DNA of 64,000 nt, taken from the NCBI GenBank assembly GCA_013239625.1, contig MU053881.1, positions 14,438,373 through 14,502,372 of the forward strand. The letters run 5' to 3'. Below the pieces are notes generated by a model that searched no databases, was not told the origin of the DNA, and worked only from the letters and a program-made list of their open reading frames with translations. Within the stretch, counting starts at the first letter, position 1. Each line of letters begins with the position of its first letter. A program made the translations under genes and the position numbers. Source of the DNA: Lama guanicoe (Eukaryota). Of this stretch, positions 21,111-63,419 are shown piece by piece.

Positions 21111-22664
21111 ACACTGCTTCATGGATGTCCTGTGGTATCTCTAGTCCTGCAGGATGACCCCTGTTCTGTGTGCTCAGGTTAATTTCTCTCTTGCTCCCTT
21201 GCATTATTCTATGCTCCTTCAACTCTTAACCTCTCCCTCACAACTTACTGGCCTGTCCTGCAGGGGAGCATGGTGATTACAGGAGAAAATGTATACCAGA
21301 AGCCTAAGAAGACAAGAGGGACCCGGTAAACCTCCACAAATGTGGGCTCATCCTTCTCACTCACCTGAGACACTGCTAAGGAGGGAGAGAAGTAGACCCA
21401 GATTTACAGTTTTATTTCTAGAACTTTAAAGGAGATCTCTGGTTTTACAACAGGAAGGACAGAAAGCAGAACCAGAAGGAAAGGCCTTTCTGGGTAGCAG
21501 GAACACAAAGCACATGCCCCCAGACTAAGATGCTTCTCCAGTAGGAGGGGGTTAGATTTTTCCCATTTATCAAGAGGGTGTAAGAATTTTTAAAGCCGAG
21601 AAATGCTAGGTCAAATAATCTCTGAAGTCCTTAGGATGCCAACAGTCTGGGCCCCAAAATGAATTTAACACAAAGACTACAAGTAGGAGTCCCTCTGTGG
21701 GGTCAGTCAGCACAAGATGACAAGGAGCACCTAGGTTCCCCAGGTCTGCACCTACCACCCTTCACCCTACCCGGGGCAAACAGACATGGAGGAGAGTCGG
21801 CAGGGGAGGCTGTTGAGGGAGATAGGGATGAACTGGACCAGACAGGGGATGTGGGGCTTCTCAGGAGGCCATGGCCACACCCACATACCCACCATGGGAC
21901 ATCTAGGTGTGAACATTCTGATTCTCAACAGAGCTCTGAAGGGAGGAGTGACAGCAGGAGCAGGACCTAGGTCTGAACTTCTCTTTACAGGGAGAAAGAT
22001 TTCTGAGTGAAGAAATGGGGTGGTACATTGAGTCTTATTTCTTTCAAGCTTTTTCCTTAAGAACCTCACAAAAGCTGAAGATTGGGAAAGTTAACTCTTG
22101 AAGCAATCAGTTTCAATTAAGGAGGAACCAACAGAGCACCTTACAGAAGACCTGAACAGAGTGGATCCCTCTTCCATGATGCACTGCCTAGGAGGAGCAG
22201 TGGCGCATGTGAGAGGTACCCTGGGCTGGGTTCCAGACTCTGACCCTAGCCACATGACCCAGGCATTATGGAAGCATCCCTGGTCTCCCATGCCCCAAAC
22301 CTGAAAAGCAGGGAGGCACGACCAAATGAAAAATTCAAGTTTTCCTACAAATCAAAAGCACAGAGTTGGAGAGCAAGTACAATTTTAGTGAAGATCTGCT
22401 GCCAAGCAGAGGAGCCAACAGAGGCTCCCATCTTGTGAGACCCACACCCCATGCTACTGATGTCTAGGCCCCAGGCCCCCAAGAGGTAAGTCTCTTGGCT
22501 AGGACGGTGGGAGAGGCCACTGATGGAGAAGGTGACAGGGCTGGAGCCCACAGCCATCTCCATGATAACCCACCAAAAGCTGCTTCCAGCAGGCCTGGAG
22601 GGAGGCTTCACCCCTACCTCCTCCCACCCAGGGCTTTCCCTGGTTCCTGTCCCCTCTTGCTCAC

Positions 22665-22927
22665 CTGTGTGAGGTTCGCATGTCCACGGGCCCATCGCCC
22701 ACCTGTCCTTCGCCTCTGCCCATGGCCATCGCCTCTGCCCCCCTCAGCAACCCTTGGGCTGGGCCTGCTCCTGGCTCAGGCGTCACTCTTATATCTCCGT
22801 CAGCGTTTAAATCTGAAGCCAACACTCCTCTCTCCATTTTTATTTTCTTGCTCTCCACATCGTCCTCTGCTGGGTCCCGTTCAAGTGCTCGTTTCTGACT
22901 CCGTGTTCGGCATGCTTCTTCAGTCAT
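22665..22927 (-). CDS. GATAD2A: GATAD2A first coding exon (exon 22933-22665, with 6 nt of 5'UTR TTCAGA): [87 protein letters not shown], ends in phase 2
   Basis: Translation matches the p66-alpha N-terminus, including the IKME SUMO consensus at K30. Acceptor ttccccccaaag-type polypyrimidine/AG at 22935-22934; donor CAG|GTGAGC at 22665/22664. Confidence 0.97.
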
Positions 22928-25743
22928 TCTGAACTTTGGGGGAAGGAGAAAACATGACATTTAACTTGACATAATGAAGCTGTTACCTTCTTAGAAACTT
23001 TTCATAGTGTCAGCATGGGGTGTTTTCCTCGCCATGTGACAATGGAAGAAGTAGGTACAAGAAACAAAAGGCCCATTAAGTGTGCCCAGGACATTTCTTC
23101 CCTGCCTTGGGGAAGACTAGGACAGGAGCAGCAGAGCATCTGGGAAGCCAAGCTATGTGCCACCCCTTTTGGGGTCAGAGACCAGCAGGGACCTGGACAC
23201 GAATAATGGAAAGTGGCTATTTATCAGAAAGAAGGAGGAAATCTCTCCAGTCCAGACTCGAGAGCAAATAGAAGAAAACTTTCTAGATCTGAACTCCCTG
23301 CCTACAGGATCCTGCGCACCTACACTGGATTGGAGGTATCTGGAATCCAGGAAGCAGAGACCACGCTGTCCCAGGAGCAGGATCACAGCCTGGGTTTAGC
23401 CCTGCACTGCACTGATGCGAGTTGACCCTTCTCCCCTTCAGTGAGAGGCGGCCTCTTCACTCCCTGCTCATCTCAGGGGAGTGAGGAGTGGGGGGTCACA
23501 TTTAACCCTTCCAATGCCAACAAGGTGAACTTTAACTGGGCTGAGGCCTGGCCCATCACTGTGCCGGCACCCTGTACCTGCAGCATACACAAATTTTGAT
23601 TTAAAGAAGGAAGAAAAGAAAGAACAGCTGAGTCAGTTTTTGATCCCATGACATCACTGGGCTCCACATGACCCTTCCCAGGATTCAGTCTGAGAGACAA
23701 AGCACTTTCCAGAAAACCAGTCTGAACCGGTTCCAGACAACAAGCTGAAGTGTTGTTAACCCTCACAGAGACAGGAGGGAAGACCGCAGTGATGTCTGTC
23801 TGCAGGGAGACTGCTGGCATTCCACAACCAAGTCTGGGACTCGAGCACTCGCTCTTAAAGGGGCCCGCTCTAAAGGGGCCCAGACTTGATGTCTCAACAG
23901 GGCAGGACGCAGGAAAACAGACTTGGACAATCAGGGTCTAAAAAGTGATGCGAGAGTTCACTAGAGGACAAAAAAAGAATCTGGCTGCCAGACTCCTGAA
24001 TTCTCGAAGTACCAATTCTCCATAAAACAGTCAGCACCCACATCCACTAACATGGGGCCCAGGGAGGAGCACACTATACAAACACTTCAGAGAATCCCAA
24101 TTTACACCTGCAGCTTGCCTACACTGAAGCTCTCCCAGCTCTGTCTTTGTCCAAGCAGGCAGGGACGCCCGCACCTCAGTTTCCTCTGCAGCAAACATCC
24201 TGGGAGGCCTGTCTCAGGTACTGCCAGGCAAACCCAGTCCCAAAGCCCACCTTCTGGGAGACTAGAGAGAGCACAGGGCAATGAAGGGGCCACACCATCA
24301 CATCTGAGACACACTCCTGAGCAGATTCACTTGCAACCTCCTTAAAGGAGCTGATTCCACAAATGAGCAACAGTGCAGGGCCCTGCCTTGGACGGAGACT
24401 GAAAAGGAAGGAAAGTGACAGCTGCTTCATGCTGCTGGCAAGGGAGGCACAGTGGCCGTCTGACACGTGTAAGGCCAGCGTGGTCCAGTCTGGGCACTCA
24501 GACATCTGCTCCTACAGGCAGTACAAAAGGAGTGAACTGAGCAGGTTTCCCCATAGCCATGTCACTGCCGGGGTGCTCCCCACTCCAGGCAGGACTTGGG
24601 AACTCTGAAGCTCAAGGGCATCAACCTGGCCTGTCTGCCTCCAAGCCTCCCTGGCGTCCCAGCCTATGCCTGCCGCCCACCCTGTACCAACTCATCCCTC
24701 TGTTCTCACCCAGATCTTCCCAGTCTCTCCTCTACCTCCCTGTGTGGAGGTCTCCTCACTGTCTGAGCAAAGTGAGGGATGCTTTCTTGTCCCTCTTAGC
24801 CTAAAGTTCTAATTTCAGTCTTCCTTCAACATGCCTTCACCACAGATGCTGTCAGCCTGCTCACTGAGTCTGTTTTGTCTCGCCATGAGCTGCAGACAAG
24901 TCACTGCCCTGAGTGTCAGTCGCCCTCCCCTGCATTTCCTCATTGTGGGAGGGATGGGTCACTTTTCCTTGGGGCCCTGCCTTAATAACAGGAGCTTCTT
25001 GAATGTCTGGGGTATTAGATGGGGAGTACTTTCGGCAACCACACTGGACAGCAGGACTGGGGAGGAGGCTACTTGGGTAAAAGATGAGGGGAGACCAGGA
25101 GCTCAGGCAAGGAGGGCTCCCACTGGAGTCAGAGGTAATTCTATCCCTAATGGAGGAGCTCCCAGTTTGGCCTGGTACCCACTGTGGGAAGGGGACCCAA
25201 GATAAACAAGGAGAATGAATTCCTACTTCGCAATACTGCACCCCTCAATTCTGCACAGAATCCCCTCCACCATGCTTCCCCACTTGGCCGCTGCTCCAGC
25301 CTGGCAGGGCCCCCACCCCCAGCACAGTCTCCAGCCCTCTAAGCCCCAGGCTCCAATTTATGAAGCTCACTCAAACCCCTAACTTGGCATAAAGTCCTTC
25401 TTCCCAACTGCCCAGAAAAGGGGGAGACTGACGAGGTCACTGTGCGTCAGGTCACCAGATCATCAAGCTGGTGCCCAAGTGACCTCACTTCATCATCACC
25501 GGTACGACATGTGGTTCCTGGGGCTAGAGTAGAGTCTCACACCCATGGGGCCATTCCCTCCAGTCCCAGGGACCACTGAAGGGTACAGGGCACTTGCAGG
25601 GCCCCAGTTCTGGTCAGGGTCCCCAGCAGAGGACCTGGGAGACTGCTTGCTTGTGCTCTGTGTGCAGTATAAGGGCAGCTCGCTCGGAAGCTGAGGGGCT
25701 GGAAATCTGCCAACCCAGGGCACGCCCTGTGCCTCTGGCAGGC

Positions 25744-40450: not shown

Positions 40451-42271
40451 TTTTTGATCCTTAACATCAAGCAAAAGGGCAGTCTCTTGGCACGTGAACA
40501 GTATATGTAGCTGCTGAACGAACAGGACCAACTAACAGGCAAAATTCAAGGATAGACACCACTTCCATTAGCCCAAGCAGGCAGCCTGACCCTCAGTGCG
40601 TACACCAACAACCATGTACAATGTGGGGTGGGGCTGTGTGTGTGCCTCAAGGACTCTCAAGGCCCCAGCCCTCCTCCTGCCTTGCTCTTCCTCTGTGCCC
40701 ACTGAGTCCTGGGCAGGAGGGGAGACCCCAGCTGACCACATGCCACAGTTCAACTGAAAGTGGAACAATCAGTCAATCTGCTGGGCTGATTTACACCCAC
40801 AACAAAAAGTACACAAGCTGACATATTTATACATCTTAAAAAATAACTGCTCAAGGCTGCTTCTGATTGTTTGACACTGACCATCAACTGCCACTACCAT
40901 TCACAGACCATCCTTTCCCATCAAGCCCCTTCATGCACTGGGCATTGGAGAGGTAGGGCAAGAGGCTCCCAGATATGGCTTCCAAAAGTTCCCTCCTGAA
41001 CCTCCAAACTGATTGCTTTGTAATGCTATGGCTGTGTCTTCCTTACTGGCCCTGTGATAGGAAATGAAGAGTTTTCATTCATTCATTCAGCAAGTACTTA
41101 TTGTTTGGACCACATATTTCTTAGTTAACAAAAGACCAGGCAAAGGCAGGGGCACCCAGCCCAGGACCTCAGAGAACCCTAAGACAGCTCACTGCCTTCA
41201 GACAATGCTCTGGGCTGCAGGACAAGGGATGGTCACTCACCCCACTGGGCTGCAGGTAAGACATTTTCCATATGTAAAGTTCCATATGCAAATTATCTCA
41301 ATTTTTTTAAAGTTGTTTTTGTTTTTGTTTTTTTTAACACAAATGAAGTTTGTTTTTGTTAGGAAAACATTCAGAAATGTTTTCCTGACATCAGGATTAC
41401 TTGACCATACCCATGTTTTCTTGCTATATGCAGATAAGAGCTGAAACCTCACAAATCAACACCCAACCTTTGTCACACAGTTTGCTCAGCCCAGCAGACA
41501 AGTCTGAGCAGCCAGTTCTCACCCCGGGCAGCTGTGACACTGTCAGAAGGGTATACAACCTTTGGAAAGTCACCAGCCGGCTGGCCTATAAGAGGAAGCA
41601 GCTAACCAACCCTATAGCTCTCCGAGCTGTCTCCATGTTCTAAGATGTCTCTTCAGTTCTATGTTCTTTTCCAGGTAGGCAGCCTTGGCCCAAAACATCA
41701 CTGGCCAGGCCCTGATAATAACAGACAAAATCCCACCTGGGGTTAGGTTCTGCCCTGCTGGGTCCTAAAAGCCCTGGACAGAGTCTCTACTTGTGAGTCC
41801 TAAGCAGTGTGAGGATAGCTCAGTTTCCTCACACGGTAAGGGCAATCAACTCCAAGCACTGGTACCAGGGCCCTGCACCACTTATTGGTGGTTAAGGATA
41901 AATTCTAACCACTACCATCAGCACTGGGAAATCACAGGAATAGCCAGAGGGCAAAGGCCACCTGGCCAGGATTATCCTCTGCCCCTGATCCTCACAGAGT
42001 ATGACTCATCCTACTTGGGTCTGGGCTTTTCAAGCAACCCCTGAGAAGCAAAGAGAGAGCAAATGGCCATCCTGGAAGAGGCAGGGCCTGGGCAGCCCAA
42101 TGGAGATAGCCCACCATGCAATGCCAGAGAGACATGCCTTCCTCCTTCTCCTCTAGGAGGTGGCCATCAGTTTTTGAAGCAGCACTCCATTTCAAATGTC
42201 CAAGGGCCTGAACGAGGCCTCCTGGCAAGTCAGTGCCTCCACTCCACAAATACCAGACCCTAAGGACTCAC

Positions 42272-42360
42272 CTGGCTTCTGAGCACAGGACGGTGGTCCT
42301 ACCAACCGGCCATGGTGGGCACTAAGTCAAAAGGCAACTTCTGTCAACGTGCTGGCCAAC
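42272..42360 (-). other. GATAD2A: Predicted alternative 5' exon of GATAD2A (89 nt) containing a strong-Kozak uATG
   Basis: Acceptor tttcttcctctgtcctttgctttag|G, consensus donor CAG|GTGAGT, and GCCCACCATGG with ATG at 42313. Confidence 0.65.
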
Positions 42361-42719
42361 CTAAAGCAAAGGACAGAGGAAGAAACACTGAGTTTGCAAG
42401 GAAAATTTCTGGAACATATCAGCAATTTTAAATGTCTCCAATCCCTGGAATTACACAGCCAATTTCTAGACTTCAACCAGAGCTATGCCTCTGCTACCTT
42501 CTACAGGAGGGCAAGCTGGAGAAATCAATTTCTATCAGTCTCTGGCATATAACCCAATAAAATGTGCTAACCAATAACTAACATGCTAGACACTAAAGAT
42601 CCCATCTTTAGCAATATGGATGGAGACAAGAGGTAGTACACAAGCACATGCCAACATACTGAACACACAGAAAATGATTCAAGGTTTTGACTATAACAGT
42701 AATGACACATGATAGAAAT

Positions 42720-61790: not shown

Positions 61791-63419
61791 CCAGAGCTGG
61801 CCCACAACACCACTCTAGGGACCTGCTGCCTGGGAACAGGCCCACAGCCCCACCTGGCAAACAGCAGGAGGCACTGGATGTGGAACAACCTCTCAGGCAC
61901 CAGGAGGAGCTGGTTGGCCACTATAATGCAGCAGGAGTTTTTTAAGTGTGCCCAAAGGCATTACCTCATTTAGGATTAATTATGTTTGAAGGTTCAAATC
62001 AAAAGACCTGGCCAGCAAGGTGGGTCAAGTAGTGTCACGTCTAGAGATGGAATTGCAGGAGGAATGGCAAAAAGGTTCTTCAACCACAAACAAATGAAGA
62101 CCTTCTCCCCAGTCCCCCATGCTGCCTCTGCCTCCACCCTCTCTGCCCTCAGTTGCAGCTGCACCTGTCTATCTTTGAGGCCAAGCAGCCTCAAAGTCTT
62201 ACAGCCTCTATCCTTCCCCCAGAGTCCTGCCTCAACTTGCTGGGAGCCCCCTTTCAGGTACAGCCCATCCCCTGCCAGCACATTCTACCTTAGATGCTGG
62301 CCTCTGTTCCTTGGACAGATATCAAGCCTTCAGTCCTTTTATGTAAGGAATCCATGAACTGGGAATCAGGAGAACAGGAAAGCAAGGCCTCTGACAAACT
62401 CACCTGTGAAACAAGTACCTTTGTGAAGATAAAGAGAGAGAAAGTGGGTGCAGCACACTGAAGCTGCAAGGACCCTTTCCCACATACCCTGGAGGGTTCC
62501 CAGATGATTCCCAGTCACTTCCTAGGGCTACTTGCAGGTATTTAATTAGAGTAAGTTCCTTTGTCTTCTAAAAGACTAACCTACATTTTCATCAGACAAA
62601 AAGAGGTCACAAATACAGCCTAAAAAGCAAGGGGAGGGGCAAGAAGCCCGTGGTCTGACATTCCTCTTGACTAAAATGTCCTGGATCATGTTTGCTGGAA
62701 TCCACAAGTATGCAAGATCTGTCCCCAGCTGGTACTTTTGTTTCTAATAACACCATAACACCATTTCACTATTTCCACCTCACTGCCACCACTTCAGGTC
62801 CCTTGTCTTTTTTTTTTTTAACTCAACCGTCTTAACATGTTACCTTCCTAATTCAAGGCAAAGATACAGCTTTGCATAGTTAGCACCTGAAACAAGTTTC
62901 ATTACCTGAAAGAATAGCAATCTGAGGCCAGATTATCTAACTCACCTCCTAAAACAGTTCAGATAACTCAAGAGCATCCATTCTAACAAACAACCACACT
63001 TAGCAGGCAGCACAATTCTGTAAGCCTCCAACTATGACACTGCCAACTCGTTCTTCTGGTTCTGCCACACTTCCCGACCTGACACTTGTTACAAGCAAAT
63101 CCCAACGATGCTCTATTACCCCAGGACAACTGCTCATAAAGACCTCACCTACTCACCTATTTCATAATCTTCCTAGTTTTCTACAACGAGCATAAATTAA
63201 CTCAATTATCAGGGGGAAAAAAATAAGCCTAAGGAAAATAGCCTTGTCCGTTCCATTTGATGGCACAGAAACATCCCAAGTCCAAACAGGTAGTTCTCCA
63301 GACAATCATTTGAGTTGCCCACGCTTTCAGAGATTAGCACACCAACAGTCCTTAAATGGATTCAGGGAAACTGACACATTCAAGACCTTGCAGGTCATTC
63401 TTGATTTTCTCCCGAGAAC

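Follow-up and report, generated by a model that had tools for sequence, protein, structure and literature searches.

A conserved optional 5'UTR exon of GATAD2A carries a four-codon upstream open reading frame in a camelid genome and probably lowers p66-alpha translation

The minus strand of the window (the whole stretch of DNA analysed, 64,000 nt of a Lama guanicoe contig) contains, upstream of the start exon of GATAD2A, an 89-nt exon which is already catalogued, real and conserved. Sequence comparisons make it likely that this is a conserved optional exon, which carries an upstream open reading frame (uORF) and lowers translation of p66-alpha when it is included. As an optional part of the GATAD2A 5'UTR it probably dates back to the boreoeutherians, and its mini-uORF is probably ancestral. 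The observations behind this reading are the sequence itself, orthology at the protein level, and inclusion in human as given in excerpts of PMC12455821. The features concerned are the following.

42360-42272, minus strand: 89-nt 5'UTR cassette exon of GATAD2A, ortholog of human ENST00000494516 (protein match with hyena P0019, human exon of equal length)
42361..42400, minus strand: polypyrimidine tract and AG acceptor of the 89-nt exon (sequence; crude-matrix rank 9/3119 AG; intron match of P0101)
42266..42274, minus strand: splice donor CAG/GTGAGT of the 89-nt exon (sequence; joint top donor score)
42299..42313, minus strand: uORF of four codons plus TAG, strong start context, G after the stop (sequence; PWP and GR residues unchanged in other-frame products of hyena and five primates)
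42284..42286, minus strand: GTG where other laurasiatherians have a second ATG, the start of a 7-aa extension of the MPRSQFR type (15 nt before the donor are two changes from MPRSQ)
22928..22933, minus strand: tandem acceptors of the start exon, 5 nt apart (sequence; homolog extensions end ..SQ-FR with the upstream or ..EA-R with the downstream acceptor, before MTEE; human -5 nt acceptor of ENST00000609040)
22663..22927, minus strand: coding part of the GATAD2A start exon, main ATG at 22927 (88 residues, 100% identity to p66-alpha of alpaca P0002 and dromedary P0003)

The original prediction had placed here an 89-nt exon with a polypyrimidine acceptor and a CAG/GTGAGT donor, and all its coordinates hold. 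The last base of the pyrimidine-rich acceptor is at 42361 (minus strand). Both splice sites are intact and rank among the best in 41 kb. Briefly, all GT and AG dinucleotides of region 22990-64000 were scored with crude matrices of our own. None of the 2755 GT outscored the donor of 42272, which tied with a donor at 62404; the acceptor came ninth of the 3119 AG, and the acceptor-donor pair 42360-42272 was joint top among six candidate exons. The exon is very probably spliced in camelids.

A single ATG is found in the exon, at 42313, with A at -3 and G at +4. From there to the donor run 42 nt, or 14 codons, and the first stop is the TAG at 42301-42299, so that a leader AUG and its stop both lie ahead of the main AUG. 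Joined to 22933, the exon is in the frame of the main GATAD2A ORF, with one stop. The ATG, its frame and its stop had been predicted and were confirmed in the sequence. The prediction had further rated the context of the 42313 ATG above that of the main start; the former is indeed strong, but the latter, with A at -3, is moderate and not weak. The in-frame position of the 42313 ATG is not remarkable by itself: an in-frame ATG followed by exactly one stop occurs in 3 of the 6 candidate exons, and two of the six share the donor and ATG of 42360-42272.

The start exon begins either at 22933 (upstream acceptor) or at 22928 (downstream acceptor), and the two acceptors set different frames for any upstream AUG. 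The distance from the uORF stop to the main AUG is 33 nt with the former and 28 nt with the latter. Each of the two remaining frames of the start exon has a Met soon after the main start. This second, frame-shifting acceptor 5 nt downstream, at 22928, had not been part of the prediction, nor had the GTG present at 42286 where an ATG is found elsewhere. The GTG has C at both -3 and +4, a poor context, and initiation from it was dismissed on that ground. The frame which gives a 19-aa extension in human (see below) has no AUG in the camelid exon and is closed by a stop at 42324. Judging from its frames, the camelid exon would thus yield an AUG-started extension from neither acceptor. In a later GATAD2A exon, the alpaca entry fits one residue better than that of dromedary.

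The exon, an early start and stop within it, and the tandem acceptor are already in print for human, in the excerpted text of PMC12455821. According to that text, two GATAD2A isoforms with the 89 nt 5'UTR exon of ENST00000494516 make up 19.9% of the expression from one promoter in human brain. The exon has the same length there as in the camelid, and the annotation 'aggTGA' implies an AG/GTGA donor in human too. An alternative start, 'ATGtca', is described in Tx12 and Tx13, where it adds 19 aa with a -5 nt acceptor of the start exon, that of ENST00000609040. The early start and stop are mentioned with a question mark attached and the codon unnamed (PMC12455821, same excerpts); by our own reading, they may correspond to the 42313 ATG and its TAG. 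The human +19 aa product starting at 'ATGtca' agrees with P0096 and P0273, both of which align to the camelid exon.

We then looked at which N-terminal extensions exist among 388 homologous proteins (the best 120 of 598, the best 120 of 238, 1 of 1, the members of 30 clusters and 26 representatives), a set in which rodents, afrotherians and xenarthrans are thinly covered. Among the matches listed, no homolog (0/388) had an extension starting from the 42313 ATG. The main Met was the first residue of 133 of these 388, and 105 were extended by 7 aa of the MPRSQFR type; 22 were extended in a different frame, with an end in ..EAR or ..KAR, 4 opened with the first five residues of the MPRSQFR type and continued into another exon, 75 had other extensions, and in 49 no main start was recognised by pattern. 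The 7-aa form, mostly found in automated predictions, concerns at least 53 named species from 26 families (first-named species of each entry, names copied by hand), namely shrews, mole, bats, pangolins, carnivores, pig, ruminants and whales. Its residues differ among species, with six variant forms. In a search of 50% clusters (26 matches), none of the 18 N-termini inspected had an exon-derived extension. The hyena extension used as query returned itself alone, and a motif scan of metagenome contigs for mammalian ortholog DNA gave two matches, both due to chance, with similarity limited to the motif.

These extensions can be mapped onto the camelid exon. Its last 15 nt read VLRSQ, two base changes away from MPRSQ, and of the 2755 GT positions no other is preceded by a closer sequence, the next best needing four changes. 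We therefore derive the 7-aa extension from the 89-nt exon, through an ATG at 42286, which is 12 nt past the TAG and is GTG in the camelid. Extensions in the other frame match directly: that of hyena P0019 shares 21 of 29 residues with 42360-42274 (E 1e-14), that of mangabey P0101 matches the exon (E 1e-8) as well as the intron stretch 42419-42348 (67% identity), and that of human matches the 3' half of the exon (E 1e-3). At the protein level, all three alignments end at 42274, in register with the donor, and the frame of these three extensions indicates that the downstream acceptor is in use.

Of the 9 species with an other-frame product, 6 were examined (hyena, mangabey, human, marmoset, siamang and gorilla), and their products inform on the codons of the uORF. 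Each of the six has the same residues as the camelid across the first ATG (P-W-P) and across the TAG (G-R), and its Trp at 42312 fixes the TG of the ATG as well as the G at +4. The comparison is made from proteins alone, and the A of the 42313 ATG and the T of the TAG, being wobble bases in these products, are deduced. On this footing, it is highly likely that the 42313 ATG and the TAG are common to other mammals. Residues after the uORF stop vary between species. As for the second ATG, it is excluded in the five primates by a Tyr at 42285, and permitted in hyena by a Cys. Since shrews, bats, carnivores, pig, ruminants and whales all carry an ATG at 42286, the GTG is best seen as a loss on the camelid side. 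By parsimony, from one camelid sequence, the camelid-specific change would be this loss of the second start codon and not the gain of a stop. Calling the direction between primates and laurasiatherians, loss of the second ATG in the former or gain in the latter, takes an outgroup.

The following mechanism is proposed. If the exon is skipped, scanning ribosomes would reach the main AUG directly. If it is included, most of them would initiate at the strong 42313 AUG, make four residues and stop, so that p66-alpha would come from such an mRNA only through leaky scanning or through reinitiation across a short gap. Late reinitiators would first meet two out-of-frame AUGs, and output per mRNA would drop. 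Reinitiation is possible after short uORFs, with a preferred gap that goes, depending on the mRNA, from ~40 nt to 79-140 nt; in some mRNAs it is efficient at ~40 nt, which would weaken the repression (PMC10275272, in the excerpts consulted). The original prediction had spoken of a four-codon uORF making exon inclusion a translational dimmer: the exon is real and conserved, this option is the likely one, and a lower translation upon inclusion is in our view probable.

The difference between lineages lies in an extra AUG: in a weak context after the stop in most laurasiatherians, it is replaced by GTG in the camelid and absent in primates, apes and marmoset having a different, upstream AUG which, through the downstream acceptor, gives the 19-aa extension. 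Where the second ATG is present, use of the upstream acceptor would lead to the 7-aa extension and use of the downstream one to an overlapping uORF; for the upstream AUG of apes and marmoset, the acceptor logic would be reversed.

The alternative that survives best, although we judge it rather unlikely, is a minor leader exon evolving near neutrality, whose splice signals are kept while its AUGs drift, the 7-aa and 19-aa extensions being artefacts of longest-ORF annotation. The lineage differences of the extra AUG speak for it, as do the six variant forms of the extension residues and the C at -3 and +4 of the second-AUG site in the camelid sequence. On the other side, a leader AUG in a strong context usually has an effect, whether selected or not. 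Also against it, the length of the exon is constant from camelid to human, and about one fifth of one promoter's expression in human brain includes it (PMC12455821, excerpted text).

Literature on GATAD2A together with uORFs or ribosome profiling yielded nothing relevant in our search, the one mention being in references only. In the camel literature searched there was no mention of GATAD2A, and no comparative study of the turnover of AUGs in the 89-nt exon was found in the literature searched. A uORF of four codons may fall under the cut-offs of catalogues. In favour of a near-neutral exon, a Ribo-seq listing of a GATAD2A uORF was missing from the supplements searched: the part of the PMC10032668 supplements covered gives GATAD2A as an interactor only, with no uORF row; no such row is present in the supplements of PMC9943669 and PMC11719525; and in 11 of the 14 supplementary files of PMC11473369, GATAD2A has expression rows only.

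An exon that is dead in camelids (a pseudo-exon), though used in other mammals, is very unlikely: neither its acceptor nor its donor is damaged, and both rank near the top over 41 kb. For camelids, the two protein entries inspected start at the main Met, as expected with the exon either live or dead. Five sequencing runs recorded as RNA contained 28-47% of the words of an 801-nt stretch, of which the exon makes up only 11%, so pre-mRNA or DNA is a possible source.

We regard as most improbable the proposal, made in the original prediction, that a 16-aa N-terminal extension was once coded from the 42313 ATG and was destroyed by a nonsense change in the camelid lineage. The frame fits and there is one stop only, but no such extension is present in any of the 388 homologs among the matches listed (thin in rodents, afrotherians and xenarthrans), and the 105 that are annotated in the same frame begin at the second ATG, past the position of the stop. 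Annotation pipelines usually place the start of an open frame at its first in-frame ATG. Given this practice, the 53 species which start at the second ATG must either have a stop or be without the first ATG; in both cases the 16-aa extension is missing. The Gly-Arg over the TAG, unchanged in 6 of 6 other-frame products, also argues against it. Programmed readthrough of the TAG into a 16-aa extended p66-alpha, which the prediction had also considered and which the in-frame arrangement with the upstream acceptor would allow, is just as improbable: the stop is TAG followed by G where a readthrough-prone context would be UGA with C at +4, and in the excerpts of PMC7089771 consulted +4 G is the least leaky context and UAG the least read-through stop in untreated cells, while RNA folding of the exon is unremarkable (z -0.79) and the residues after the stop vary by species.

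We retain the conserved optional uORF exon. That its lowering of translation is itself under selection is possible, but we hold this for doubtful. More ambitious still, the exon and the 5-nt tandem acceptor could form a selected, splice-controlled translation switch for GATAD2A, a dosage-sensitive NuRD subunit, in which the conserved mini-uORF sets the repression and the acceptor flips the second AUG between an in-frame extension and a repressive overlapping uORF. Evolution would have rewired this AUG differently in each lineage: most laurasiatherians have it after the stop, camelids have lost it, and in apes and marmoset an upstream AUG with opposite acceptor logic takes its place. We consider such a switch unlikely.

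Other candidate leader exons were observed. A second strong one, at 62619-62404 (minus strand), has the joint top score and a 3-codon uORF. A pangolin model matches 62272-62231 (minus strand), the end of which is 173 nt beyond the 62404 donor, and a -174 nt internal donor is described for an upstream human leader exon (PMC12455821, excerpted text). The 62619-62404 exon is probably the counterpart of this human exon, and may extend to 62231, the outer donor then being GC. In buffalo models P0015, P0016 and P0023, five residues of the 89-nt exon are followed by an exon matching 31153-30985 (minus strand), then by the start exon; dog model P0036 has a similar join with another exon. Just upstream of the start exon, the conserved segment 23654-23472 (minus strand) is similar to N-terminal extensions predicted for porpoise, pygmy sperm whale, orangutan and tamandua, and is perhaps an alternative first exon. 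In the same intron, 29336-29244 and 29165-28989 (minus strand) resemble extensions predicted for blue whale, owl monkey and a lemur, and are further leader-exon candidates. No CpG island was found in the window (1-64000) except a weak signal at 501-1000, which places the promoter and first exon beyond 64000. The window contains only six short tandem repeats and no long internal repeat.

GATAD2A is intolerant to loss of function (pLI 1) and linked to a neurodevelopmental disorder in which haploinsufficiency is suspected (PMC10172836, in the part consulted). If the leader exon cuts translation in about one fifth of one promoter's brain transcripts, dosage control is plausible, and non-coding variants or exon skipping could then matter at this exon. 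Leader exons with a uORF are common; the dosage sensitivity of GATAD2A still makes reporter work reasonable. The camelid side is a small point, the loss of one weak start codon.

Compared with known systems, the exon resembles uORF cassette exons in general ('scenario 1' of PMC10275272; the NUMB uORF c14riboseqorf81 of PMC10032668, both in excerpts), which are likewise optional, with a short uORF that ends before the main start. Unlike catalogued uORFs such as c14riboseqorf81, the four-codon uORF of GATAD2A is very short and is absent from the tables searched. In laurasiatherian 7-aa p66-alpha isoforms, which are automated predictions (cattle P0187, pig P0173, shrew P0313), the first five residues correspond to the final 15 nt of the camelid exon, but these isoforms start at the second ATG, which the camelid lacks. 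With respect to the human exon, known here from protein and description, the camelid exon differs by having no AUG in the +19 aa frame and by its GTG at 42286; the human exon of ENST00000494516 / ENST00000404158 is likewise an 89-nt 5'UTR exon upstream of the start exon (PMC12455821, excerpted text).
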